From assembly GCA_031551525.1 (NCBI GenBank), contig JAVBNN010000009.1:1120-65119 (forward strand): a stretch of 64,000 nucleotides of DNA, read 5' to 3'. The translations under genes were made by a program, and so were the position numbers. This document shows positions 3,664 through 47,827 of this stretch, in pieces; positions within the stretch are counted from its first letter, which is position 1, and each line of letters starts with the position of its first letter. Source of the stretch: Acidaminococcales bacterium. GTDB taxonomy: Bacteria; Bacillota; Negativicutes; Acidaminococcales; JAISLQ01. The notes under the pieces are model-generated. The model worked only from the letters and a program-made list of their open reading frames with translations, was not told the DNA's origin and searched no databases.

Positions 3664-3897
3664 GTCTGGTAATTAGTGCGTCACATCACTAGGACTTAAG
3701 TATCATTTTGCAAATAAAATATATTTCCTGACTGGCAATATGAAAATGAATTTTTAGCATATATATGTATGATTTTTTAAATACACACAATATATTGTTG
3801 TTTGTGCAATTTATATTACCCAAATAGTGAGTATTCATCAGACAAAACATTCCTGCGCACTAGCAGGAATAATTTTTTTTGTGTAGAAATTATGGTG

Positions 3898-9719: not shown

Positions 9720-11081
9720 ATGTTCAAAGACAAAAAAATATTGATATTTGGCGCCGGAGTAAGCGGGGTGGGAGTAGCTGCCGTGTTGGCGGATGAAGGC
9801 GCCGAAACTGTTATTTATGATGAAAACCTGCCGCAAGAAAAGCAAAAATCTTTAACTGAACAAAATATCCCTTTCCTGACAGGCCCCCTGACGGCTGATT
9901 TTCTCTCCACGCAGGACTTTATGATACTTTCTCCCGGCGTGTCCATCTACAGTAAACTGGTCGAACGGGCCGGGGCGGTCGGCGTAAAGGTGCTAGCAGA
10001 GGTAGAAGTGGCGGCCCGGCTTTTTCCGGGCAAACTTATAGCTATAACAGGTACAAATGGCAAGACGACTACTACCATGCTGCTTGGCCAGATGCTGGGG
10101 AAACTCCCGGTAAAAAGCGCCGTGGGCGGTAATATAGGTGATGCCCTTTCGGTGGCTGCCAAAACACTGCCTGCTAAAAATGACATTTTGCTGGCGGAAA
10201 TATCCAGTTTTCAAATGGAGAGCGTGGATACCTTTCACCCTAATATCGCAGCCGTTCTCAACCTGACGCCCGACCATCTCGACCGGCACCGCACCTTTGC
10301 CGAATACAAAAGACGCAAAGAGGCCGTCTTTGCGAGGCAGACACCGGATGACTATCTGGTGCTGAATTTTGATGACACAGAAGTAAAAGACATGGCCGAA
10401 CGGGCTAAAGCGCGCACAGTTTTTTTCAGCGGTAAGCAGGAACTGCCGGAAGGCGCTTTTTTGCAAAATAATATAATAACCATCTTCTGGCAAGGGGAAA
10501 AATACGAAGTGTGCCCGACGTCAGCCATGCAGATTTTTGGCGCGCACAACGTTGAAAATGCTTTAGCGGCCTCTATATGCGCTTTTTTAGCTGGAGTACC
10601 GATAGCTGATATTAGAAATGTTCTCGAGAACTTTGAAGGGGTAGAGCACCGGCTGGAGTACGTGGCGACGGTTGCCGGGGTGCCCTACTATAACGACTCC
10701 AAGGCCACCAACCCCGAATCGGCGGTAAAGGCGCTGGAGGCTTTTGCCGGAAATATAGTGCTGATAGCGGGTGGCAAGGACAAATTGACCGACCTGTCGG
10801 AATTCATGGCTTTGGCAAAAGAAAAGACCAGCTTATGCATATTTTTGGGTGAAGCCCGGGAACGTTTCTCTCGGGAAGCGCAAACCGCAGGAGTTGGCAA
10901 AATTTTTCTGGCCGGTACATTTGAAGAAGCGGTGGAAAAAGCACATTCTTTTGCGAAGCCGCCCCAGGTGGTGCTTTTGTCGCCGGCCTGTTCGTCTTTT
11001 GACATGTTTAACAATTTTCCCGAGCGCGGCAGGTATTTCAAACAACTGGTAAAAACCTACAAATCAAGGGAAAAAACCTAG
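9720..11081 (+). CDS. murD: UDP-N-acetylmuramoylalanine--D-glutamate ligase
   Basis: N-terminal Rossmann fold GAGVSGVGVA, P-loop ITGTNGKTTTT, LNLTPDHLDRH and YNDSKATNP. Confidence 0.93.
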   Translation: MFKDKKILIFGAGVSGVGVAAVLADEGAETVIYDENLPQEKQKSLTEQNIPFLTGPLTADFLSTQDFMILSPGVSIYSKLVERAGAVGVKVLAEVEVAARLFPGKLIAITGTNGKTTTTMLLGQMLGKLPVKSAVGGNIGDALSVAAKTLPAKNDILLAEISSFQMESVDTFHPNIAAVLNLTPDHLDRHRTFAEYKRRKEAVFARQTPDDYLVLNFDDTEVKDMAERAKARTVFFSGKQELPEGAFLQNNIITIFWQGEKYEVCPTSAMQIFGAHNVENALAASICAFLAGVPIADIRNVLENFEGVEHRLEYVATVAGVPYYNDSKATNPESAVKALEAFAGNIVLIAGGKDKLTDLSEFMALAKEKTSLCIFLGEARERFSREAQTAGVGKIFLAGTFEEAVEKAHSFAKPPQVVLLSPACSSFDMFNNFPERGRYFKQLVKTYKSREKT

Positions 11082-14424: not shown

Positions 14425-15123
14425 ATGTTCCCCAACAAGCAAGCCAGGCTGGTTGTTACTTTTATCTGCCTGATACTTGGATTGATGCTTGCTACCCAGT
14501 TTAGAACAGTAGAGAATTTGAAAGCTAATGCTTTGCCTTACCAAAGGCTGGAAGACTTGACGGAAAAACTCAAGCGGGCAGAAAAAGAACGCACTGATCT
14601 AATGGTGGAGCTGCAAAGATTTAAGGAAGAAGCCGGTAGCGAAGTACAGGCAAAAGAAAGCCGGTTGCTGCAAATGTACGCGGGTACTTTGCCTATGCAA
14701 GGACCGGGAGTCCTTGTGACCATCGACGACAGCAAGATGCCAGCAAAACCGGGCGATAACCCAAATATTTACCTGATACATGACGACGATCTTTTGAAAG
14801 TAATAAACGAACTCAAGGCGGCCGGGGCGGAAGCTATCTCAATAAACGAACAGCGTTTGATCGCCACCTCGGAAATACGCTGTGCCGGGCCCACCGTATC
14901 TGTCAACAACGTCCGTTCCTCGCCGCCTTATATCATAAAGGCGATCGGTGATCCACAAAGCCTCGACGCATCGTTGAAAATGCGCGGCGGAGTAATAGAA
15001 ACGCTGAAATTCTGGGGCATACAGGTGCAGACCAAAAAAGAAGAAAAGCTCAAAGTGCCAGGATATGGCGGGGTTTTTCGCTTTGATTATGCAAAACCTG
15101 TGGAAGAAGGTACAAAACAATGA
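14425..15123 (+). CDS. DUF881 family division-associated protein (YlxW/YlxX-like)
   Basis: N-terminal TM, coiled coil, and GPGVLVTIDD...HDDDLLKVINELKAAGAEAISINEQR, typical of DUF881. Confidence 0.75.
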   Translation: MFPNKQARLVVTFICLILGLMLATQFRTVENLKANALPYQRLEDLTEKLKRAEKERTDLMVELQRFKEEAGSEVQAKESRLLQMYAGTLPMQGPGVLVTIDDSKMPAKPGDNPNIYLIHDDDLLKVINELKAAGAEAISINEQRLIATSEIRCAGPTVSVNNVRSSPPYIIKAIGDPQSLDASLKMRGGVIETLKFWGIQVQTKKEEKLKVPGYGGVFRFDYAKPVEEGTKQ

Positions 15124-15449
15124 TATACCCTTTGCTAGGGCTGTTTGCGGGTATACTTCTGGGAAGTGTTTTTTCCCTGCATGTACCGCACGAATATTCT
15201 AAGTTCATGTCGGTTGCCCTCATGGCGGGTCTCGATTCAGTATTTGGTGGTATACGCTCCGCCATGGAAGAAAAATATGATAACATGATATTTATCACGG
15301 GTTTTTTTACCAACACGCTCCTGGCAGTCGGTCTGACCTATGTGGGAGAGCGGCTGTCCATAGATCTTTATTTTGTCGCCGTACTGACTTTTGGCTTGCG
15401 TATGTTCCAAAACCTTGCCATCATCCGGCGGTTGTTTTTAAAAAAATAA
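15120..15449 (+). CDS. sbp: Small basic protein Sbp (DUF1290)
   Basis: A 109-aa membrane protein that overlaps the DUF881 stop, in the same position as sbp in Bacillus and Clostridium dcw clusters. Confidence 0.65.
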   Translation: MIYPLLGLFAGILLGSVFSLHVPHEYSKFMSVALMAGLDSVFGGIRSAMEEKYDNMIFITGFFTNTLLAVGLTYVGERLSIDLYFVAVLTFGLRMFQNLAIIRRLFLKK

Positions 15450-15564
15450 TTTTAGAACATACATATTGTGTTTGTTTAAAGAGTAAGGTACTATATATAA
15501 CAAAGATTGCTAAAATTGGAAGAAGATTTAGCCGCCAACAAGTGGTTAAGGAGGAACATAGCGG

Positions 15565-16680
15565 ATGATGGAAATGGAAATGGATATAAGTACCCTTGCC
15601 AACATCAAGGTAGTTGGGGTAGGCGGGGGCGGCACCAACGCGGTAAACCGCATGATTATGGCCGGTGTAAACGGCGTGGAGTTTATCTCGGTAAACACCG
15701 ACTCCCAGGCGCTCTTGTATGCTCATGCTCCTACCCGCATCCAGATCGGTGAAAAACTCACGCGAGGGCGCGGAGCTGGCGCCAATCCTGAAATCGGCGC
15801 CCAGGCGGCGGAAGAATCTCGAGAACAATTACTGGAACTATTAAAAGACGCAGAAATGGTCTTTGTTACCGCCGGAATGGGTGGCGGTACCGGCACAGGT
15901 GCTGCCCCAATCGTTGCCGAATGTGCGCGGCAAGTGGGCGCTCTTACAGTAGGCGTGGTTACCAAGCCCTTTGCTTTTGAAGGAAAACGTCGCCAAAGCC
16001 AGGCCGAATATGGCATCAGTAAACTCAAAGAAAAAGTGGATACGCTGATAACCATTCCCAATGACCGCCTGATGCAGGTGATCGACAAACGCACACCTAT
16101 GCTGGAAGCTTTTCGGATCGCCGACGATATTTTACGCCAGGGCGTGCAAGGCATTTCGGACCTCATCGCTGTTCCTGGCCTCATCAATCTTGACTTTGCC
16201 GACGTACGCACCATCATGTCAGATGCGGGCAGTGCCCTGATGGGTATAGGCGTGGCAAAAGGCGAGGGCGGGGCACTGGCGGCCGCCGAGTCTGCCATCA
16301 AAAGCCCGCTTCTCGAAACCTCGATAGACGGAGCGCGCGGTGTGCTGTTTAATATCACCGGCGGTAAAAACCTGAGTTTGTTCGACGTAAACGAAGCCTC
16401 GCAGATCATTGCCGATGCCGCGGATAAAGATGCTAACATAATTTTTGGCGCGGTCATCGACGAAGCAATGGACGAAGAAATACGAGTTACAGTAATCGCC
16501 ACCTGTTTTGAGCAACGTCTTGGCAAGTCTGCCACCTTTTCCGTGCCGGGGCTTTCGTTACCGGACGTTAAAAGTCAGCCTGTACCGGCAACCGCCTCCA
16601 ACGCAGGGAAGGAAGACTTTTGGTCAGTACCGCCCTGGATGGTCAGTCGCAAAGAAAAACCCCCTGCGACAGATAAATAA
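15565..16680 (+). CDS. ftsZ: Cell division GTPase FtsZ
   Basis: [17 protein letters not shown] and the tubulin signature [16 protein letters not shown], with the T7 loop NDRL. Confidence 0.97.
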
Positions 16681-16696
16681 CTCTATATTTTATATA

Positions 16697-16726
16697 AAAC
16701 TGCCGGTTATGAGACCGGCAGTTTTC
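16697..16726 (+). terminator. Rho-independent terminator after ftsZ
   Basis: CTGCCGGT (16700-16707), a 6-nt loop and ACCGGCAG (16714-16721), followed by TTTT. Confidence 0.75.
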
Positions 16727-16770
16727 AATATATAGTGTACGTCAAAAAATACATATACTATATATTGAAA
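16723..16770 (+). promoter_or_regulatory. Tandem NrdR boxes upstream of nrdR-nrdD-nrdG
   Basis: Box 1 is tttCAATATATAGtgt (16723-16738) and box 2 is ataCTATATATTGaaa (16755-16770). Both cores match the published NrdR-box core CwAtATaTwG perfectly. Box centres are 32 bp apart, the usual tandem spacing. Confidence 0.8.
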
Positions 16771-16848
16771 AATGAAGTTTGTTGTGCGATAATAAAACAC
16801 GGGTGAAAAATGAACCCTACCAAAAAAATCGGGAAGGTGTGAAGTACA

Positions 16849-17340
16849 TTGAAATGTCCTTTTTGCGCCTACTTTGACAGCAGAGTAGTCGATTCGCGTG
16901 CTATCGAAGACGCTACCGCGATCCGTCGTCGCCGTGAATGCCCTTCTTGCAACAAAAGATTTACTACTTATGAAAAAATGGAAGAAATACCTTTGATGGT
17001 AGTAAAAAAAGACGGGCGCAGAGAGATATTCAATGAAAAGAAACTATTTGGCGGCTTGGTGAAAGCTTTTGAAAAACGCCCCGTACCCATCGAACGCATA
17101 CAGGAACTGGCTGACAAAGTGGAACGGGAAGTACGCGGCACGGGGGAAGCTGAGATCGCCAGTGAACGCATCGGCGAAGCAGTCATGCGCTATATTGCCG
17201 AAGTCGACCAGATAGCATATGTACGCTTTGCTTCAGTATATCGGCAATTCGCCGATGTAAACAATTTCATGCAGGAAATACAGCATATAATGAAAAACAC
17301 ACAGCATACGCCGGAAAAGGGGAAAAACAAAGATGTTTGA
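16849..17340 (+). CDS. nrdR: Transcriptional repressor NrdR
   Basis: TTG start. MKCPFCAYFDSRVVDSR...RRRRECPSCNKRFTTYE zinc ribbon followed by an ATP-cone. Confidence 0.95.
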   Translation: MKCPFCAYFDSRVVDSRAIEDATAIRRRRECPSCNKRFTTYEKMEEIPLMVVKKDGRREIFNEKKLFGGLVKAFEKRPVPIERIQELADKVEREVRGTGEAEIASERIGEAVMRYIAEVDQIAYVRFASVYRQFADVNNFMQEIQHIMKNTQHTPEKGKNKDV

Positions 17341-19282
17341 CGTGATAGTTAAGCGTGACGGGCGAAAAATGCCTTTTGACGAAAGTAAAATAACCAACGC
17401 CATATTCAGGGCGGCTAACGCGGTGGGCGGCGCCGACCGGCAGTTAGCCATGGAAATAACTATAGATGTATTGCGCTATATTAAAACCAAATATAATGGC
17501 GGCTCCTTTGGCGTCGAAGACGTTCAGGACGCAGTGGAGAAAGTGCTTATCGAACGTGGGCACGCCAGAACTGCCAAAGCGTATATCCTTTACCGGGCCC
17601 GTCGCAATAACATCAGAAACGCCCGTTCCGAACTTATGGACGCCGTGGCAGACATCCTTGTCGAAACCAATCGCGATAACGCGAACATTTCTAATTCCCC
17701 TTCGGCCAAAATGCTGCAGATAGCCAGCGCGGCCAGCAAAGAATATTACTTGTCCCGACTGATCCCGGAGCATATTGCCGCGGCGCATAAGCGTGGCGAC
17801 ATACATATACATGACCTTGATTTTTACGGAAAAACGCTCAATTGCGTAAACATTCCGCTCAAAAAACTTTTACAGAACGGTTTCAATAACGGGCACGGCT
17901 ACATCAGGCCGCCCCGTCGCCCGGGATCGGCTACCGCTCTGGCGGCTATCGTCCTGCAAAGCTCGCAAAACGATATGTTCGGCGGTCAGTCCTTTGGTTT
18001 TTTTGACTTTGACATGGCTTCTTTTATGAAGGACGCCAGTGACGAAGAAGCCTTCCAGTCTATGGAAGCGCTGGTCTACAACCTCAACAGCATGCATTCT
18101 CGCGCCGGCGCACAAGTACCATTCTCCAGCCTCAATCTTGGTCTTGACACATCGGATGAAGGACGCAAAGTTACCAAAAACCTTCTTTTGGCTTATGAAA
18201 AAGGCCTTGGCCGCGGTGAAAACCCTATTTTCCCCAATATAATCTTTCGCGTGAAAAAAGGCATCAATTTCGCCGAAGGCGATCCCAACTATGATCTTTT
18301 CAAACTGGCTATCCGTGTCGCTTCGCAGCGCATGAACCCGACCTTTAGCTTTATGGACACGACCTTTAACAAGCCATACGATGGTGAAGTAGCCTATATG
18401 GGTTGCCGCACCAGAGTTATCGCCGACCGGCATGGGGAGTCTATTACTACTGGCCGCGGCAACCTGTCCTTTACCACTATAAACTTGCCCCGTCTTGCTA
18501 TGCGGGCTGAACGCAATATAATGCTTTTTTACCAATACCTCGATGAAATGATCGAACTTACCAGTGAACAACTTTACCACCGTTTTGAAGTACAGAGCAA
18601 ACTGCGGATGAACGACCTGCCCTTTTTGATGGGACAGGGACTGTATCTTGACTCTGATAAACTCGGACCGGACGATACTATCAAGGAAGTCATCAAACAC
18701 GGTACCCTTACAATTGGCTTTATCGGACTTGCGGAAACCCTGGTTTCCCTCACCGGGGCACACCACGGCGAAAACGAAGACTCAAGAGCACTCGGAGAAG
18801 AAATAGTCGCTTTCCTGCGTAACAAGACGGATAAAATGGCGGAGCGCTACGACCTTAATTATACACTTATCGCTACCCCGGCCGAGGGACTCTCGGGGCG
18901 TTTTGTAAATATGGACAGGAAAGAATTCGGACTTATCCCCGGCGTCACGGACAAGAGCTTTTATACTAACTCCTTTCATGTGCCGGTCAACTATCGCATC
19001 AGCGCTTTTGAAAAAATGAAGATCGAAGGCAAATTTCACGGCTACACCAATGCCGGACATATCAGCTATGTAGAATTTTCCTCGCCGCCCGTCAACAACC
19101 TTACCGCAGTGGAAGACCTGTTGAAATTTATGCTGGAATGTGACTGCGGCTATGCCGGCATAAATTTTCCGATAGACTATTGCGACAATTGCGGCTATCT
19201 TGGCGTTATCAACCAGGATTATTGCCCGCGGTGCGATTCGAGCCATGTGCGCTGCACCGTGCGCAAAAACCACGACAATTAA
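17333..19282 (+). CDS. nrdD: Anaerobic ribonucleoside-triphosphate reductase large protein NrdD, lacking the C-terminal glycyl-radical domain
   Basis: N-terminal ATP-cone (VIVKRDGRKMPFDESKI...), the core motif AYMGCRTRV, and the C-terminal Zn-ribbon CDNCGYLGVINQDYCPRC. The protein stops 15 aa later (DSSHVRCTVRKNHDN*) with no RxxGY glycyl-radical motif. nrdG starts only 15 nt after the stop. Confidence 0.9.
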   Translation: MFDVIVKRDGRKMPFDESKITNAIFRAANAVGGADRQLAMEITIDVLRYIKTKYNGGSFGVEDVQDAVEKVLIERGHARTAKAYILYRARRNNIRNARSELMDAVADILVETNRDNANISNSPSAKMLQIASAASKEYYLSRLIPEHIAAAHKRGDIHIHDLDFYGKTLNCVNIPLKKLLQNGFNNGHGYIRPPRRPGSATALAAIVLQSSQNDMFGGQSFGFFDFDMASFMKDASDEEAFQSMEALVYNLNSMHSRAGAQVPFSSLNLGLDTSDEGRKVTKNLLLAYEKGLGRGENPIFPNIIFRVKKGINFAEGDPNYDLFKLAIRVASQRMNPTFSFMDTTFNKPYDGEVAYMGCRTRVIADRHGESITTGRGNLSFTTINLPRLAMRAERNIMLFYQYLDEMIELTSEQLYHRFEVQSKLRMNDLPFLMGQGLYLDSDKLGPDDTIKEVIKHGTLTIGFIGLAETLVSLTGAHHGENEDSRALGEEIVAFLRNKTDKMAERYDLNYTLIATPAEGLSGRFVNMDRKEFGLIPGVTDKSFYTNSFHVPVNYRISAFEKMKIEGKFHGYTNAGHISYVEFSSPPVNNLTAVEDLLKFMLECDCGYAGINFPIDYCDNCGYLGVINQDYCPRCDSSHVRCTVRKNHDN

Positions 19283-19297
19283 CTGGGGGCGTAAAAG

Positions 19298-19792
19298 GTG
19301 CTTAGAGTTGCCAATATCCTGCCCGAATCCGTCGTTGACGGAAGCGGTATAAGGACGGTAGTATTCTTTCAAGGTTGCCTGCATCATTGTCCGGGCTGTC
19401 ATAACCCGGATCTGCTTGAACTTTGCGGCGGAACCGCCTATACCGTGGAAGAACTTGCCGATTCTATCATAGAAGAACTAACCGCCCTCCATAAAGGAGT
19501 GACTTTTAGCGGGGGCGACCCGCTTTTGCAGGCGGAAGAACTGGAAAAACTCATTATTATTTTGCGCCAAAGACGGCCGCATATCAACATCTGGCTCTAC
19601 ACAGGCTATGTTTACGAAAACATTTCCGGCTGGCCGGTCTTGCGAGGTGTGGATGTATTGGTGGACGGCCCCTTTAAAGAAGGGGAGCGGGATCTTTTAT
19701 TAAGATTTCGAGGTTCAGCAAACCAAAAAATAATTGATATTCCTAAATCTCTGGCCACAGGCCAGACGATAGAATACCAACTACCAGATTGA
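19298..19792 (+). CDS. nrdG: Anaerobic ribonucleotide reductase activating protein (radical SAM)
   Basis: GTG start. VVFFQGCLHHCPGCHNPD contains the CxxxCxxC cluster. About 164 aa, typical NrdG size and position. Confidence 0.92.
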   Translation: MLRVANILPESVVDGSGIRTVVFFQGCLHHCPGCHNPDLLELCGGTAYTVEELADSIIEELTALHKGVTFSGGDPLLQAEELEKLIIILRQRRPHINIWLYTGYVYENISGWPVLRGVDVLVDGPFKEGERDLLLRFRGSANQKIIDIPKSLATGQTIEYQLPD

Positions 19793-19818
19793 CAGGGCGA
19801 AAGCCCTGTTATTTTTTT
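19792..19818 (+). terminator. Rho-independent terminator after nrdG
   Basis: CAGGGC (19793-19798), GAAA loop and GCCCTG (19803-19808), followed by TTATTTTTTT. Confidence 0.8.
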
Positions 19819-19878
19819 GCAGGAAAAAAACCGTATAAAGAGAATATATACTACAAATACTTAAAGAGGTGTGCCTGG

Positions 19879-20331
19879 ATGCGTCTTTTTACCGCGCTGA
19901 AAACAGGAGGGGACATTGATATACTGACCGCCCTGGCCGACGATGGATTCGTGCCTATACCGGCGGACGATTTTGACGGAGAAGACCGTTTTTCCGTAGC
20001 AGTCACCGGAGACGCTGGCGATAATGACCGCGTATGGATAAAATGGCGGCCACAGCTCATTTTTTCCGCCAGTAAAGCAGGCATCAACAGCAAACTCTAC
20101 AACTGGCATACTTATGAAGTGGGCGCGAAAAAACTCTTTTTGGGTGTTCTCTCTGACCGGCCGTTTGTATTGCCCGGCGACTGGTATCTGGATTATCGGT
20201 GCAGCTCTGATGATAGCGCGGTTTTTTTGAAGGCTCTGGCCGACTACAGTTACCGCTATGTTCTTGCGGAAGCCATGGCGGAAAACGCCGAATGGTGCGG
20301 GCATATGTCGTCGGTAGTACATAGATTATAA
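19879..20331 (+). CDS. Hypothetical protein (about 150 aa), no recognisable motif
   Basis: ORF-track frame 19789-20331. Start moved to MRLFTALK (ATG 19879) behind AAGAGGTG, because 19789-19818 is the nrdG terminator. It ends 7 nt before the PPK2 gene. Confidence 0.55.
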   Translation: MRLFTALKTGGDIDILTALADDGFVPIPADDFDGEDRFSVAVTGDAGDNDRVWIKWRPQLIFSASKAGINSKLYNWHTYEVGAKKLFLGVLSDRPFVLPGDWYLDYRCSSDDSAVFLKALADYSYRYVLAEAMAENAEWCGHMSSVVHRL

Positions 20332-20338
20332 GGAGTGG

Positions 20339-21844
20339 ATGTCGTTGCTCGATACTTTAGATTTAAAACTTAGCCTCGATAAAAAAGAATACAAAAAAAT
20401 CAAAGATGAGCGCATGGAACGTCTGGGGGCGCTTCAGCGCGCGATACGCGACGCCAAAATCCCGGTAGTCATTATTTTCGAAGGCTGGAACTCATCCGGT
20501 AAAGGTGTATTGATAAACTCTTTGGTGCAGGCCATGGACCCACGCGGTTTTAAAGTCCATACCTCATATCAGGCCAGGGAAGAAGAACGCAGCAAACCGT
20601 TTTTCTGGCAATTTTGGACCAAGCTTCCGGCTAAGGGCAACCTGGCTATTTTCGACCGGGGCTGGTATTTCCAAACCGTGCACCGCGAGGTTTGCGGACA
20701 CGCCAGTGCAATGGAAAGCGCCATAGCATACGGCGACATCAACGCTTTTGAACGCCTCTTGACAGATGATAATCACATCATCATAAAATTTTTTACACAT
20801 ATCTCAGCTAAAGAACACAAAAAGCGCATCAAAGAATTGGAGAAGAATTTTGGCAAGGATTGGCGGCCAACTGACGAAGACTGGCGAGAGATAAAAATAT
20901 ATGAGCCGCTCTTGGCTATATACGAGGAAATGTTCAGCAAAACCGATACTGCGCACGCTCCGTGGGTGGCCGTCGAAGCTCACGATACAAAATACGCACA
21001 AATCAAAGTGCTTGACCATGTGATAAATGTTCTTGAGAAAAAACTCGAAGAAGTCGAAACAGCAAAAAAAGAAACTGTGCAGTGTAAAAAAGAGAAAACG
21101 CAAAACCCTTTGCCGGAAAACGCTTTTCATTCATCTGTCCTTAATAAAGTCAAGCTCGACCAGGATGTAACGGAAAAAGAATATGAAGAAAAAATGGACA
21201 AGTATCAGGAACGGTTGCAAGAACTGCAGTTCAAACTGTTTCGCAGCAAAATGCCGATGATACTGGTATTTGAAGGATGGGACGCAGCCGGAAAAGGCGG
21301 TACAATAAAGCGGGTGACGGCGCATATGGATCCGCGCGGGTACTACGTTACACCCGTGGCTGCGCCCGGCCTCGTCGACCGTGACTACCACTATCTTTGG
21401 CGTTTCTGGAAAGAAATGCCTCCCAAAGGAATGGTGGCGATTTTTGACCGTAGCTGGTATGGGCGTGTCATGGTTGAACGGGTAGAGGGTTTTGCCACGG
21501 AAGACCAGTGGCGCAGGGCTTACAAAGAAATCAACGAAATGGAAGAGCAACTCACCAACAGCGGCAACATTCTTTTAAAATTCTGGTTGCAGATCGACAA
21601 AGAGGAACAACTTCGCCGTTTTGAAGACCGCCAGAGTACGCCAGCCAAAAACTGGAAAATAACAGAAGAGGACTGGCGCAACAGGGAAAAATGGGATGAA
21701 TATGAAGTCGCTGTAAATGAAATGCTCTTTAGGACGAGCACGACCCACGCCCCCTGGACCATAGTAGAATCCAACTGTAAGTTTTATGGCCGCCTGAAAA
21801 CTATCAAAACCATCGTGAATCATATAGAAAGCCATTTCAAGTAA
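20339..21844 (+). CDS. Two-domain polyphosphate kinase 2 family protein (polyphosphate:AMP/nucleotide phosphotransferase type)
   Basis: Two PPK2 modules. The first has VVIIFEGWNSSGKGV...MDPRGFKV...FWQFW..LPAKGNLAIFDRGWY. The second has ILVFEGWDAAGKGGTIKRVTAHMDPRGYYV...YLWRFWKEMPPKGMVAIFDRSWYGRV. Confidence 0.88.
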   Translation: MSLLDTLDLKLSLDKKEYKKIKDERMERLGALQRAIRDAKIPVVIIFEGWNSSGKGVLINSLVQAMDPRGFKVHTSYQAREEERSKPFFWQFWTKLPAKGNLAIFDRGWYFQTVHREVCGHASAMESAIAYGDINAFERLLTDDNHIIIKFFTHISAKEHKKRIKELEKNFGKDWRPTDEDWREIKIYEPLLAIYEEMFSKTDTAHAPWVAVEAHDTKYAQIKVLDHVINVLEKKLEEVETAKKETVQCKKEKTQNPLPENAFHSSVLNKVKLDQDVTEKEYEEKMDKYQERLQELQFKLFRSKMPMILVFEGWDAAGKGGTIKRVTAHMDPRGYYVTPVAAPGLVDRDYHYLWRFWKEMPPKGMVAIFDRSWYGRVMVERVEGFATEDQWRRAYKEINEMEEQLTNSGNILLKFWLQIDKEEQLRRFEDRQSTPAKNWKITEEDWRNREKWDEYEVAVNEMLFRTSTTHAPWTIVESNCKFYGRLKTIKTIVNHIESHFK

Positions 21845-21890
21845 ACAACATATAGTATTGCAAAAGATAACCCCGTACTATATAATGTAT
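21843..21890 (+). promoter_or_regulatory. Second tandem NrdR-box pair, overlapping a sigma-70-type promoter in front of the small glycyl-radical ORF
   Basis: Box A core is CAACATATAG (21846-21855; reverse strand CTATATGTTG, 9/10 to CwAtATaTwG). Box B core is CTATATAATG (21878-21887, 9/10). Centres are 32 bp apart. TTGCAA (21858-21863), a 17-nt spacer and TATAAT (21881-21886) form the promoter. Confidence 0.7.
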
Positions 21891-21950
21891 GTTGCAAGAA
21901 GGGCTTTTGTTTAGGCAACATGATTCAAGCCCGCAGAGGGGGACAAAGCA

Positions 21951-22244
21951 GTGCAAAAATTTGTTTTTCAGGACGTTCTGGTCAGCTGCCCGGAAGAGAT
22001 GCCGTTACCGGAGGCCAGGGGATATGTGGCCGAGCAACTTACGATAAAGCCCGGCTGTAAACTAGCTGAACTGGAGATAAAACTGGCTGGAAATGAAGTC
22101 GTATTGGCGCCACATTATGATTCTATCGTGCGCATACGCCGCATAACCGGTTATCTCAGTACCATCAGCAAATTCAACGATGCCAAAAAAGACGAAGAGC
22201 GCAGCCGCTTGAAACATATCTGCTGTGATAGCGCCTGCGGCTGA
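21951..22244 (+). CDS. Stand-alone glycyl-radical domain protein homologous to the NrdD C-terminus (97 aa)
   Basis: GTG start behind AGAGGGGGA. The C-terminal half HYDSIVRIRRITGYLSTISKFNDAKKDEERSRLKH matches the NrdD glycyl-radical consensus (RxxGYL...N.GK..E...R.KH). The predicted radical Gly67 codon is at 22149-22151. The N-terminal roughly 55 aa have no recognisable motif. Confidence 0.75.
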   Translation: MQKFVFQDVLVSCPEEMPLPEARGYVAEQLTIKPGCKLAELEIKLAGNEVVLAPHYDSIVRIRRITGYLSTISKFNDAKKDEERSRLKHICCDSACG

Positions 22245-22264
22245 TGCCGTTTCCGCAAATTCAT

Positions 22265-22306
22265 AAAAAGCAAAAGAGGAAGGAGCTCCTTCCTCTTTTG
22301 CTTTTC
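22265..22306. terminator. Bidirectional terminator between the small glycyl-radical ORF and the convergent PfkB kinase
   Basis: A perfect 20-bp palindrome AAAAGCAAAAGAGGAAGGAG/CTCCTTCCTCTTTTGCTTTT centred at 22285/22286, with A and T runs on either side. Confidence 0.8.
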
Positions 22307-22323
22307 AATATGAACCGACCATA

Positions 22324-23283
22324 TTACTTCTTCACCCAAGAGAGCAATTTTTCTCTATAACTCTCATTTTTCAAGGCGTCTATGGCGGAACACTCGCTAT
22401 TTTTATCAGCGATGACCAAAGATGCAAGCTTGGCGCCTATGTCGACCGCGTCGCGCAGACTTTGGCCATGTAAAAGGGCGGCCGACGTAGCGGAAAAAAA
22501 GGAATCCCCGGCGCCGGTCGAATCCACTACCGTAGTAGGGTAGGCTTTTTGCAGCCCGCAATCACCATATTGGTCAAGATAGGCGGCGCCCGCTTCGCCC
22601 AAAGTGACGACGAAATTTTTAAGGCTGTGGCCTTTGGCAAAATCCTGCATGGCAGACAGTAGAATGTCTGACGGACCCTCAACAGGCTGCCCGAAAAGAC
22701 GGGAAGCTTCCTCTTTGTTGCAAATAAAACAATGAATATCTTTAAAAAGATCATAATGTTGACCGATGACTGAAAAATTGCCGGGCAGGGCGTAGACCTT
22801 TCGCCCGGCGGCGGTTGCGCTGTCGATGATCGCGCGCGCCAAATCTTCGCTTAAGTCTATTTCCAGCAAAATAGCATCCACTTTTGCCAAAACAGAGGGC
22901 AAATTAGACATTATTGCCTTGTGCATCAAATCTATATCCGGCATTTGCGACACCGACCCCAAAAGCTCACCGTCGTGGCCGATGAGCGCCAGCCAAGCGC
23001 CTGTGCCGCCCTGGGCGACAAAAGTGGCGTTTTCAAAATGTACGCCCATGGAAACCAGCCTGGTTTTAAGGAGTTCTCCTGACCCGTCCTGGTTTAAAGT
23101 GCCGACAAACCAGGTGTCTACATCGAGATGGGCCATATTTACGGCCACATTGCGGGCTACCCCGCCGGCCACCAGTTCCACCCGGCCGAGATTGCGTCCG
23201 GCAGGATTGAAACCGGGACCGGCAAAACCTTTATAATCTATGAACACTGTTCCGATGACAGCGGCACATGGCCGTGGTTGCAT
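22324..23283 (-). CDS. PfkB-family carbohydrate/nucleoside kinase
   Basis: VIGTVFIDYKGF...GGVARNVAVNMA and the PfkB signature VVDSTGAGDSFFSA. GGGGAGGT RBS. Confidence 0.8.
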   Translation of the reverse strand: MQPRPCAAVIGTVFIDYKGFAGPGFNPAGRNLGRVELVAGGVARNVAVNMAHLDVDTWFVGTLNQDGSGELLKTRLVSMGVHFENATFVAQGGTGAWLALIGHDGELLGSVSQMPDIDLMHKAIMSNLPSVLAKVDAILLEIDLSEDLARAIIDSATAAGRKVYALPGNFSVIGQHYDLFKDIHCFICNKEEASRLFGQPVEGPSDILLSAMQDFAKGHSLKNFVVTLGEAGAAYLDQYGDCGLQKAYPTTVVDSTGAGDSFFSATSAALLHGQSLRDAVDIGAKLASLVIADKNSECSAIDALKNESYREKLLSWVKK

Positions 23284-23300
23284 GTAAAATACCTCCCCGA

Positions 23301-23792
23301 TTAGCGCATATTGGTGAATTGCAAATCTACGCCAAAATCTCCCTGCTTCAGGGCTTGTATGACTGCCTGCAACTCATCTTTTTTAGCGCCGCTGACTCTT
23401 ACCTGGTCATCCATGATCTGGGCCTGGACCTTGAGTTTGAGGTTTTTTATCGTATTGACTATATCTTTTGCCTTATCTTTGGCGATACCCTTTTGAATAG
23501 TGATAATTTGGCGTACGGTGCCCTTGGAAGCCGGCTCTATCTTGCCGGAAATCAGGCAGCGCAAAGGCAGTTCGCGTTTTGCCATGCGCACGCGAAGCAT
23601 GTCGAGTATGGTCTCCAGTTTGTATTCATCCTCGGCGGACAGCTTTATTTCATTATCCACCAATTCGATGCTGGCCGACGAATTTTTAAAATCATACCTC
23701 TGCGCAATCTCGCGCGCGACCTGGTTGATCGAATTATCCATCTCCTGCATGTCGACTTCCGATACTACGTCAAAAGAGCTGTCTTTAGCCAT
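23301..23792 (-). CDS. yajQ: YajQ family nucleotide-binding protein (UPF0234)
   Basis: MAKDSSFDVVSEVDMQEMDNSINQVAREIAQRYDFKNSSASIEL... and the 163-aa length are typical of YajQ. Confidence 0.88.
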   Translation of the reverse strand: MAKDSSFDVVSEVDMQEMDNSINQVAREIAQRYDFKNSSASIELVDNEIKLSAEDEYKLETILDMLRVRMAKRELPLRCLISGKIEPASKGTVRQIITIQKGIAKDKAKDIVNTIKNLKLKVQAQIMDDQVRVSGAKKDELQAVIQALKQGDFGVDLQFTNMR

Positions 23793-45248: not shown

Positions 45249-47827
45249 CGGTGACTTATACGCCAATGATCCAGCAATATAAAGAGATAAAAGAATGCCA
45301 CCCGGGAGACATACTATTTTTCCGGTTGGGCGATTTTTATGAAATGTTTTTCGAAGATGCGGAACTGGCTTCCCGCGAACTGGAAATAACTCTTACCGGG
45401 CGCGAGGGTGGGTCAAAAGAACGTATTCCTATGTGTGGTGTGCCTTACCATGCGGCGGAAGGTTATATAGCCAAACTTTTGAAAAAAGGTTACCGCATAG
45501 CTATCTGCGAACAGACCGAAGACCCCAAACAGGCAACTGGCCTCGTGAAACGCGAAGTAGTGAAAATAATCACACCAGGCACTACGATGAACGAACAAAT
45601 ACTGGAAGACAAAACCAACCAGTATCTTGTTTTGGTTTATGAAGAAAACGCTCTGCTTTGCCTTGTAGCCGCCGACATATCGACCGGCGAATGCCTGTGG
45701 ACGGTTTGCCGTGGAGCGGCTCGTCACGAAAAAGCAGCCGACTTTATCTTCCAGACCTCACCGGCTGAAATCGTGCAGTCCGGCAATGTAGAAAACTGGG
45801 ACAAACTCGAAGATTTTTGTCGGCAAAAACTCGGCAATTTCGTTTTTACCAGCTTTTTGCCGGAAAACATTAAAACGTCCGGGCAACTGGCGGAAAAGCA
45901 TTTTACGGACACCTCCCGTTTACCGCAAGAGGCTCGTACCGCGCTAGGTTTTATGCTGTCTTACCTTTATCAGGTGGTCAAGTCCGACCTGGCTCATTTG
46001 AACAGGCTGAACGAATTGAATTATGATAACACTATGCTTATGGACGCTACCGCCATACGTAACTTGGAAGTTTTAAAAAATATGCGTGACGGCTCCAAAA
46101 AAGACACGCTACTTTCTGTTTTGGATCGCACCCATACGGCGATGGGGGGGCGCCAGATAAAGCGCTGGCTGGAAATACCGCTTTTGAATCCGCTGTATAT
46201 AAAAAAACGCCAGCAGGTAGTAAAAGACCTCTTGGGCAATGTCGTTCTGCGTGACACTTTGGCCGACAACCTAAAGCGGATACAGGACATAGAACGCATA
46301 CTATCCCGGGTGGAGGTAGGAACGGCCAACGCCCGTGACCTGGCTGCGTTATCGTCATCACTAGGCGCTTTGCCGGAAATAAAAAGGATACTTTCTGTTG
46401 CCGGCTCCAGTAGTTTGGCGCTCTTGGGCGGGCAGATGGAAGTACACGCAGCGCTGTTTAACCTGCTCGTTAGCGCTTTGGTTGAAGAACCGCCTTTTTC
46501 CGTGCGCGAAGGCGGCATGATCAAAGAAGGGTATGATTTTGAACTCGACGAACTGCGCGCTATTTCCCGCGAAAGTCGCGCCTGGATGGCGGACTTTGAG
46601 CAAAAGGAACGGATAAGCACAGGGATAAAAAACCTCAAAGTCGGTTATAACAAAGTTTTTGGTTATTACATAGAGATAACCAAGTCCAATTTGCAGTCTG
46701 TGCCTGATAATTTTGTCAGAAAACAGACTTTGGCCAACGCAGAGCGCTATATAGTGCCAGAACTCAAAGAATTTGAAAACAAAATATTGGGTGCGCAAGA
46801 ACGCATAGAGCAGCTGGAATACCATCTATTTGGTCTTTTGCGGGAGAAAGTGCGCGAACAACTGGTTAGCCTTCAGGATACCGCCCGTTTGCTGGCCGAC
46901 ATAGACGTTTTCATGGCGCTGGCGGTGGCAGCGGACAAGTACAATTTTGTTTGCCCGGAAATTAACGACCGTCAGGAAATAATCATAAAAGACGGCCGTC
47001 ATCCGGTAGTGGAGAGACTGTTAGTTCGCGAGATGTTTGTACCGAATGATACGGCGCTCAACATGAAAGAACAGCGCACCGTCATCATAACCGGTCCGAA
47101 TATGGCCGGCAAATCTACTTATATGCGCCAAGTGGCGCTCATTGTCCTGTTGGCGCAGATCGGCAGTTTTGTGCCGGCGCGTGAAGCCAGCATTTGCCCG
47201 GTGGATAGGATATTTACCAGGGTGGGGGCGAGCGACGACTTGGCCAGTGGACAGAGTACCTTTATGGTGGAGATGACCGAAGTTGCGCAGATCATCAAAT
47301 ATGCAACCGCTAACAGCCTGATAATCCTTGACGAAGTGGGACGGGGCACCAGCACTTACGATGGTATGAGTATCGCGCGGGCAGTCATTGAACACATCAG
47401 CGGCAGGATAAAGGCCAAGACTCTATTTGCCACGCACTACCACGAACTTATACAACTGGAAGAAAGCATATCTTCCCTAAAAAACTATTCGGTGGCAGTA
47501 AAGGAACGCGGCAACGAAGTAGTGTTTTTGCGTCGGATCATCCCCGGCGGGGCTGACAAGAGCTACGGCATACACGTGGCACAGCTCGCCGGTTTGCCGA
47601 AAAATCTCCTGGCACGAGCCCAGGAACTTTTAGCAGAATACTCCGAAGGTATATGCGCGACGCCCGTTCAGGACAATGCCGTACAAAACGGTCAATCATC
47701 CTTGTTTGCCAGTGCCTTGAGCAGTGAACTTTTAAAACTGGACGTCACCACGCTTACTCCGCTCGAAGCGCTCAATAAAATATTTGAACTGCAGCAAGAG
47801 GCAAGGCGGGAGGCTGGGTTATCATGA
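45245..47827 (+). CDS. mutS: DNA mismatch repair protein MutS
   Basis: TPMIQQYKEIKECHPGDILFFRLGDFYEMFFEDA, Walker A GPNMAGKSTYMRQ, and DEVGRGTSTYDG. The ATG at 45245 overlaps the miaB stop. Confidence 0.97.
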   Translation: MTVTYTPMIQQYKEIKECHPGDILFFRLGDFYEMFFEDAELASRELEITLTGREGGSKERIPMCGVPYHAAEGYIAKLLKKGYRIAICEQTEDPKQATGLVKREVVKIITPGTTMNEQILEDKTNQYLVLVYEENALLCLVAADISTGECLWTVCRGAARHEKAADFIFQTSPAEIVQSGNVENWDKLEDFCRQKLGNFVFTSFLPENIKTSGQLAEKHFTDTSRLPQEARTALGFMLSYLYQVVKSDLAHLNRLNELNYDNTMLMDATAIRNLEVLKNMRDGSKKDTLLSVLDRTHTAMGGRQIKRWLEIPLLNPLYIKKRQQVVKDLLGNVVLRDTLADNLKRIQDIERILSRVEVGTANARDLAALSSSLGALPEIKRILSVAGSSSLALLGGQMEVHAALFNLLVSALVEEPPFSVREGGMIKEGYDFELDELRAISRESRAWMADFEQKERISTGIKNLKVGYNKVFGYYIEITKSNLQSVPDNFVRKQTLANAERYIVPELKEFENKILGAQERIEQLEYHLFGLLREKVREQLVSLQDTARLLADIDVFMALAVAADKYNFVCPEINDRQEIIIKDGRHPVVERLLVREMFVPNDTALNMKEQRTVIITGPNMAGKSTYMRQVALIVLLAQIGSFVPAREASICPVDRIFTRVGASDDLASGQSTFMVEMTEVAQIIKYATANSLIILDEVGRGTSTYDGMSIARAVIEHISGRIKAKTLFATHYHELIQLEESISSLKNYSVAVKERGNEVVFLRRIIPGGADKSYGIHVAQLAGLPKNLLARAQELLAEYSEGICATPVQDNAVQNGQSSLFASALSSELLKLDVTTLTPLEALNKIFELQQEARREAGLS

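Follow-up and report, generated by a model that had tools for sequence, protein, structure and literature searches.

A probable tandem NrdR operator at the promoter of a detached glycyl-radical module suggests a split class III ribonucleotide reductase in an Acidaminococcales bacterium

The DNA considered here is a stretch of 64,000 nucleotides from an Acidaminococcales bacterium (assembly GCA_031551525.1, contig JAVBNN010000009.1, positions 1,120 to 65,119), called the window below. It carries the gene of the regulator NrdR, the nrdD and nrdG genes of a class III (anaerobic) ribonucleotide reductase (RNR) and, further downstream, a small open reading frame (ORF) of 97 amino acids (aa). Judged from its sequence, this small ORF is a stand-alone glycyl-radical module of a class III RNR, and the palindrome pair in front of it, at 21843–21890, is in our estimation (probability about 85%) a genuine NrdR operator. 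It would lie over a sigma-70-type promoter of the monocistronic 97-aa gene, the radical-bearing and the catalytic piece of a split class III RNR probably being switched on and off together. As a regulatory element, this is a standard NrdR operator; the novelty lies in the new kind of target. The site and its gene are made up of the following features:

21843–21858, no strand assigned: NrdR box 1, AAACAACATATAGTAT, 15.1 bits; the -35 hexamer begins with its last base
21858–21863, plus strand: predicted -35 hexamer TTGCAA, with a 1-nt overlap with box 1
21859–21874, no strand assigned: inter-box spacer of 16 bp, holding most of the -35 hexamer; sequence unconserved
21875–21890, no strand assigned: NrdR box 2, GTACTATATAATGTAT, 11.6 bits, spanning the -10 hexamer
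21881–21886, plus strand: predicted -10 hexamer TATAAT, 17 nt past the -35 and inside box 2
21937–21944, plus strand: ribosome-binding site GAGGGGGA, read from the sequence, 6 nt 5' of the GTG start (21951)
21951–22244, plus strand: small ORF, 97 aa, GTG start; predicted stand-alone class III RNR glycyl-radical module

The two palindromes have the cores CAACATATAG (21846–21855) and CTATATAATG (21878–21887). The box centres (21843–21858 and 21875–21890) are 32 bp apart, with a 16-bp spacer between the boxes. The initial annotation had placed the cores at these positions, had found the same centre distance in the pair in front of nrdR (16723–16770) and had described an overlap of the palindromes with a TTGCAA-17-TATAAT promoter. 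All of this is borne out: both pairs have 16-bp spacers, box 1 shares 1 nt with the -35, and the -10 lies within box 2. The promoter agrees with the sigma-70 consensus at 10 of 12 positions, and transcription is predicted to start near 21893. On its other side, box 1 overlaps the stop codon of the preceding PPK2 gene. GGAGG-type ribosome-binding sites are found at the equivalent place in the aligned relatives. The 5' untranslated region is not unusually structured (z +1.2), and an Rfam scan of 15000–23500 returned no riboswitch or known RNA for it. A second TTGCA(A/G) stands at 21892–21897, directly 3' of box 2 at the predicted transcript start; it mirrors the TTGCAA 3' of box 1 and is kept in four of five relatives. 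A second promoter starting from this repeat was rejected, as no acceptable -10 lies downstream.

Mutagenesis has identified C4, A6, A8, T9, T11 and G13 as the conserved positions of the NrdR box. C4 and G13 are essential and need an 8-bp separation, while A6 and T11 are important, yet the change A6T is tolerated in vitro (PMC13584703). By this list (PMC13584703), box 1 has all six critical positions. Box 2 has five of the six: its T11 is replaced by A, the change that yields TATAAT and the mirror image of the tolerated A6T (PMC13584703). The optimal spacer is 15–16 bp, with a second optimum at 24–27 bp, so that the centres are three or four helical turns apart (PMC12051234), and spacers of 15–16 bp are the norm for NrdR sites (PMC12051234, PMC13584703). 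Cryo-electron microscopy of NrdR revealed a tetramer with two DNA-binding sites 80 Å apart, contacting bases via D15 and R17 (PMC9110341). The window encodes such a regulator, preceded by an operator that served as the reference:

16723–16770, no strand assigned: reference NrdR operator of nrdR-nrdD-nrdG, the best pair in the window, with boxes of 15.4 and 14.7 bits
16849–17340, plus strand: nrdR, Zn ribbon and ATP-cone (Pfam PF22811 and PF03477; TIGR00244, 192 bits)

The encoded NrdR is intact, with the DNA-contact residues R12, D15, R17, R26–29 and R37 all present when the sequence is compared with PMC9110341. The reference boxes are TTTCAATATATAGTGT (16723–16738) and ATACTATATATTGAAA (16755–16770), the second of which overlaps the -35 of a TTGAAA-17-GATAAT promoter. 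The same nrdR-operator pair was found in L003, one of the related loci (L numbers are used where these must be told apart). In box content, spacer, promoter location, presence of a cognate nrdR, conservation and RNR-related target, the small-ORF site agrees with an NrdR operator.

The statistical weight of the pair was determined with a symmetrised weight matrix, trained on box pairs located 5' of nrdR or nrdD in 18 other Firmicutes genomes (7 with a centre spacing of 31 bp, 11 with 32 bp), the window and small-ORF promoters being excluded from the training set. Over the ~64,000 positions of the window, box 1 ranks third (15.1 bits) and box 2 seventh (11.6 bits). Together they reach 26.8 bits, a score exceeded in the window only by the nrdR operator (30.1 bits), and the third-placed pair drops to 15.4 bits. 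With spacings of 16–60 bp admitted and both boxes above 6 bits, the whole window yields three pairs at 32 bp, one at 43 bp and no others. Neither the 2000 first-order Markov replicas of the window nor the 1500 64-kb sequences simulated from its intergenic DNA (39.7% GC) contained a pair of 26.8 bits or more. In E. coli and P. aeruginosa, phased box pairs occur solely at RNR operons (bioRxiv 10.1101/2025.03.28.645925).

The 97-aa protein has 46 close homologues of ~90 aa. A locus scan with one genome per species gave 80 loci, 55 of them with stand-alone small ORFs and the rest representing C-termini of full-length NrdD. The stand-alone forms are found in Acidaminococcales, Phascolarctobacterium, Lucifera, Sporomusa, Pelosinus, Anaerospora and some metagenome-assembled genomes (MAGs) of Clostridia and Mollicutes. 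The 1.26 Mb of related loci contain 49 phased pairs with both boxes above 6 bits, of which 27 lie upstream of a small ORF, 19 upstream of nrdR or nrdD, and 3 are weak pairs elsewhere. Pairs above 8 bits are present at 24 of 54 small-ORF upstreams; among 2194 control windows of equal size, drawn from the same loci, 1 held such a pair. Although spacings of 17–60 bp were scanned, these small-ORF pairs occur only at 31 bp (3), 32 bp (13) and 41 bp (8), the helical phases that NrdR accepts experimentally (PMC12051234). The 41-bp centre distance, with a 25-bp spacer, belongs to the Acidaminococcaceae and Phascolarctobacterium loci L006, L008–L009, L011–L014, L019, L020 and L023. This conservation across genera supports the initial assignment of the small ORF to the NrdR regulon. 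Equally good tandem matches at unrelated AT-rich regions, an outcome named beforehand as contrary to that assignment, were not encountered within the available sequence; in the window only the nrdR operator scores higher.

The four closest relatives (L001–L004) have an operator-promoter-ORF architecture identical to that of the window. Across these five loci, the fusion of box 1 to TTGCAA and the 13-bp core of box 2, TACTATATAATGT, are invariant, and the spacer and flanks have diverged. The aligned -35 hexamers of L001–L004 read TTGC(A/T)A or TTGAAA, and the -10 TATAAT is invariant in the relatives. Among close relatives, the small ORF shows 0.16–0.25 nonsynonymous differences per site (pN) versus 0.62–0.98 synonymous ones (pS). 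Since its synonymous sites are saturated, the conserved footprint next to it indicates constraint and not recent common ancestry. The gene upstream varies: PPK2 in the window and L003, a 175-aa ORF in L001, a 344–350-aa ORF in L002 and L004, and a deoB-lipoprotein pair in Acidaminococcaceae. The module thus stands behind at least four different upstream genes, which indicates that the operator belongs to the small ORF.

Two genomes have a pair of paralogous small ORFs, namely the MAG that holds both L001 and L003, and Lucifera butyrica (L026 and L029). An NrdR pair lies upstream of all four copies, with a weak box 1 (6.4 bits) in L026. Small ORFs of the Sporomusa type (L032, L035, L039, L054, L068, L079) have no NrdR boxes. 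These loci share CTATTGACTATTAT, followed after 12–13 nt by TTATTATTAAAG, ~40–90 nt 5' of the small ORF; this promoter-like, AT-rich inverted repeat is possibly the site of another regulator.

Elsewhere in the window, the best single box, ACACAATATATTGTTG (3785–3800, 16.0 bits), is located ~175 bp 5' of mraZ/rsmH, at the start of a cell-division gene cluster. It has no partner box and, as single boxes do not bind NrdR in vitro, it may be a chance match. A third, weak pair phased at 32 bp was found at 15456–15503, 60–110 bp 5' of ftsZ, consisting of AACATACATATTGTGT (9.1 bits) and GTACTATATATAACAA (6.3 bits), and also exists in L003 (3463/3495). Binding to it is doubtful because both boxes miss the critical C4 or G13. 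Single high-scoring boxes at 46777 (within mutS) and 61904 (3' end of tkt) were taken to be chance matches.

The product of the small ORF matches only positions 533–562 of the 562 positions of Pfam NRDD (PF13597), and the NCBIfam NrdD models match it solely at their C-termini. Its residues 1–57 form a beta-beta-alpha-beta-beta domain, and residues 58–90 carry RIRRITGYLS..FNDAKK..E...R..H. The radical-loop motif, R-(V/I)-x-G-Y followed by (W/F)-N-x-x-K...E...R..H, is found in the small protein as RIRRITGYLSTISKFNDAKKDEERSRLKH. Residues R61, R63, R64, I65, T66, G67, Y68, L69, N76, D77, A78, K79, E82 and H89 are invariant in 30 family members. The family profile matches the NrdD of P. copri (PDB 8p23) at chain residues 697–739, with Gly67 aligned to the radical Gly711 and Tyr68 to the conserved Tyr712. 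An AlphaFold model of the 97-aa protein has a predicted local distance difference test (pLDDT) score of 75, and ~88 for the N-terminal domain; a fold search with this model gave no significant PDB match (best E 0.9). The protein has no match to PF01228 (Gly_radical) in Pfam and no PDB sequence match to GrcA. In the window, it ends in a Cys-rich extension, ICCDSACG (22221–22244), seen in no relative; the relatives end in ...KHIQ. The initial annotation had argued, without recourse to homology, for a function of the small ORF together with the RNR. The phased pair supports, independently of homology, its place as a working part of the anaerobic RNR, and the homology to the NrdD tail strengthens that claim beyond the earlier argument.

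The complementary piece is the window's own NrdD, encoded next to its activase:

17333–19282, plus strand: nrdD, 649 aa, with ATP-cone, barrel and four-Cys Zn ribbon, and no glycyl-radical motif
19298–19792, plus strand: nrdG, radical-SAM activase (Pfam Fer4_12, Radical_SAM)

This NrdD matches NRDD positions 1–535 of 562 and ends after the CPRC of the Zn ribbon, just short of the motif. The canonical arrangement, with the radical domain on the same chain as the barrel and the Zn ribbon, is therefore not found here, the motif being on the separate 97-aa protein. The NrdD proteins of L003 (90% identity) and L005 (73% identity) likewise terminate directly past the Zn-ribbon CPxC. The motif is absent or degenerate in 38 of the 120 closest NrdD homologues, by several different routes: a clean stop in Acidaminococcales, frameshift-like tails elsewhere, and in P0152 a full-length chain with Thr in place of the radical Gly. 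Two tail-less or degenerate NrdD proteins recur in 9 and 16 independent assemblies, and one of them is from an isolate genome. No small ORF was found within 10 kb on either side of the truncated nrdD of P0117 and of Acetonema longum P0120. The full-length nrdD genes of L064, L067, L074, L077 and L078 (Clostridia, Tissierellia) match the window NrdD in 2–3 blocks, 0.3–3 kb apart, which suggests inserted elements (inteins or introns).

The parent NrdD is truncated in the window, L003, L005 and Avacidaminococcus, and full length in Lucifera, the OY764022 genome and Anaerospora. The small ORF stands alongside this full-length NrdD in Lucifera butyrica (P0077; L026, L029), the OY764022 genome (P0128; L027) and Anaerospora hongkongensis (L045; L056). 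Because it coexists with an intact NrdD in these three genomes, the family probably originated next to a complete enzyme, as an addition to it. Most simply, a surplus copy of the radical module gave rise to the small protein, and lineages such as that of the window later lost the cis tail. We find it moderately likely that Acidaminococcales, and probably other Negativicutes, have a two-polypeptide class III RNR, in which an NrdR-controlled 10-kDa radical protein docks in trans into a tail-less NrdD, and that this protein began as a spare part beside full-length NrdD, allowing repeated loss or decay of the cis tail.

The genes around the small ORF bear on how it is expressed. Two intrinsic terminators frame the region:

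19790–19811, plus strand: intrinsic terminator 3' of nrdG (-16.2 kcal/mol, z -4.6), followed by seven T
22266–22305, no strand assigned: hairpin terminator 3' of the small ORF, with an 18-bp stem (-27.9 kcal/mol, z -7.1)

The second is apparently bidirectional, ending the transcripts of both the small ORF and the convergent pfkB. Between nrdG and the small ORF lie a 180-aa ORF (19789–20331) and then a two-domain PPK2, a polyphosphate:AMP phosphotransferase (TIGR03708, E 4e-191), so that the small ORF is separated from nrdDG by a terminator and two genes, as had initially been described. The 180-aa ORF has no match in Pfam or NCBIfam and shows 57% identity to its counterpart in the equivalent position of L003; in run X2, no other RNA contig of the region is as deep as the one that falls on it (19900–20221, depth 22).

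RNA from the small ORF is seen both for the window, where it is sparse, and in an ortholog. The window's small ORF is matched by a single 209-nt metatranscriptome contig, which lies within it at 21992–22184 and holds no 5'-end information. The ortholog of Phascolarctobacterium faecium DSM 14760 is locus L020 (small ORF at 9995–10267), for which sparse RNA-seq runs from synthetic communities were available as assembled contigs, a kind of data that does not map 5' ends. Two runs gave one contig each over the small ORF alone, at 9994–10359 (depth 43) and 9978–10334 (depth 61), and in both runs the upstream gene had no coverage; in a third run, a contig break falls exactly at the operator-promoter region. 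These contigs fit a short, abundant, monocistronic RNA starting just past the predicted -10. A promoter dedicated to the small ORF, as first proposed, is thus backed by the varied upstream genes, the gene's own terminator, the convergent pfkB and the P. faecium contigs confined to the ortholog.

Several observations weigh against NrdR control of a split enzyme. No NrdR pair is present at 22 of the 54 homologous small ORFs, so this control is not family-wide, and in the Phascolarctobacterium-type loci the boxes stand 5' of the -35 and not on the -10, which implies that the repression geometry differs between lineages. In the window, box 2 is the weaker box (11.6 bits), lacks T11 and is confounded with the -10 hexamer, so that part of its conservation is promoter conservation. 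Matches to the promoter consensus are themselves common, with 13 found against 8.1 expected in 6 kb. There is no terminator between PPK2 and the small ORF, and read-through from PPK2 may add to its expression. Finally, a second, full-length nrdD may exist elsewhere in the genome, of which 64 kb were seen.

This last point bears on an explanation that we regard as unlikely, in which the operator is real and the small protein is not an obligatory radical subunit. It would be either a spare part for oxygen damage, as GrcA is for pyruvate formate-lyase (PFL), or an accessory to a full-length NrdD encoded outside the 64 kb. The three genomes that combine the small ORF with a full-length NrdD (Lucifera butyrica, OY764022, Anaerospora hongkongensis) speak for it. 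However, the sole NrdD of the window has no radical glycine, and its clean truncation is kept at 73–90% identity. Truncated NrdD proteins occur in many independent assemblies, which suggests that the cis tail is dispensable, with a trans copy supplying it, and in the window the truncated nrdD adjoins nrdG. The comparison with the PFL spare parts GrcA/YfiD and T4 Y06I is instructive. Like them, the 97-aa protein is a small glycyl-radical-loop protein, encoded apart and presumably activated by the cognate radical-SAM activase. Unlike GrcA/YfiD, it is homologous to the tail of NrdD and not to PFL, is under putative NrdR control, and has an ordered N-terminal domain (beta-beta-alpha-beta-beta) where theirs is disordered. 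Its partner NrdD has no glycine of its own in the window lineage, so the small protein would be obligatory and not a repair part.

It is very unlikely that the boxes act on transcription coming from PPK2, as a roadblock or 3'-end element, with the small ORF expressed chiefly by read-through. The overlap of box 1 with the PPK2 stop codon and the lack of a terminator between the two genes would fit such a role. Against this, the module occurs in L001, L002, L004 and the Acidaminococcaceae loci with no PPK2 in front of it, the -35 and -10 are conserved, and the P. faecium RNA contigs begin past the promoter with no coverage upstream.

A further explanation is that the palindromes are merely an AT-rich sigma-70 promoter (UP-like element, -35 and -10) which resembles NrdR boxes, NrdR being inactive at this place. 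Box 2 does hold TATAAT, box 1 abuts the -35, promoter-like matches are frequent, and TATA-type palindromes are prone to occur in AT-rich intergenic DNA. Nevertheless, not one of the 1500 simulated 64-kb sequences of intergenic composition contained a pair as good, and the rate in the control windows was 1 in 2194. C4 and G13, which have no role in a -10 or -35, are conserved on both arms. In addition, the boxes of Acidaminococcaceae are clear of the -10 and yet conserved, only at 31, 32 and 41 bp. We therefore consider this explanation highly improbable. Least probable of all is the binding of another regulator with a similar site: many regulators recognise AT-rich palindromes, but this one matches a matrix trained solely on nrdR/nrdD operators, shares its geometry with the genome's own nrdR operator, falls into the spacing classes that are the experimental optima of NrdR (PMC12051234) and precedes an RNR component.

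Taken as an NrdR operator, the site resembles the known pairs of E. coli nrdAB, nrdHIEF and nrdDG, L. monocytogenes nrdDG and S. coelicolor nrdRJ in its two 16-bp partial palindromes with C4/A6/A8/T9/T11/G13. It also shares with such RNR-operon pairs an unconserved spacer of 15–16 bp, the overlap with polymerase-binding elements and an nrdR gene in the genome that is probably autoregulated through an equivalent site. It differs from them in that box 2 carries T11A and doubles as a consensus -10, and in its target, a monocistronic gene of ~90 codons for a detached glycyl-radical module. The long-spacer sites of Streptococcus pneumoniae (25–26 bp, four turns; PMC12051234) are comparable to the 25-bp-spacer operators of the Acidaminococcaceae and Phascolarctobacterium small ORFs, whereas the spacer in the window is short (16 bp). 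A C-terminal RNR module as a separate polypeptide under NrdR control is also known from the class II enzyme NrdJa/NrdJb of Pseudomonas aeruginosa. That enzyme belongs to another RNR class, its module is of a Zn-finger/IscU-like type and not a glycyl-radical loop, and its two genes are adjacent in one operon, whereas the pieces in the window lie 2.7 kb apart with separate operators.

By analogy with these systems, we infer that NrdR binds and represses the small-ORF promoter. When dATP is plentiful, an NrdR tetramer carrying dATP and ATP would bind both boxes, whose centres are three helical turns apart, and kink the DNA across the -35 and -10, shutting out RNA polymerase. A drop in dATP would leave ATP-only NrdR oligomers unable to bind DNA, and the small gene would be transcribed. 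It would be repressed and derepressed along with nrdR-nrdDG, whose operator of the same geometry sits 5 kb upstream. The separate operator would in this way keep the pieces of the split RNR under one nucleotide-sensing switch, despite the terminator and two genes between them. We further infer that NrdG activates the small protein, which would then dock into NrdD.

A trans-encoded radical domain as an NrdR target appears to be undescribed. No description of a split NrdD or of an RNR spare-part protein was found in the literature, where coverage was thin for subscription journals, and a June 2026 review names the formate lyases as the only class of glycyl-radical enzymes with known spare-part proteins (PMC13450708). 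If the two-polypeptide reading is true, the 97-aa protein would be the first autonomous radical module of a glycyl-radical enzyme outside the formate lyases, and the first obligatory one. Phased pairs are regarded as exclusive markers of RNR operons; here, one precedes a gene of ~90 codons that had escaped annotation and so reveals its role as an RNR component, which shows that operator scanning can uncover missing parts of a pathway. Phascolarctobacterium faecium, being cultivable, lends itself to a direct test. If functional, the trans arrangement would change the view of radical installation and of oxygen-damage repair in anaerobic RNR, and provide a natural two-piece system for studying the entry of the radical domain into the barrel. 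It would also explain the many truncated-looking NrdD genes of gut Negativicutes, which are liable to be mis-called as pseudogenes.

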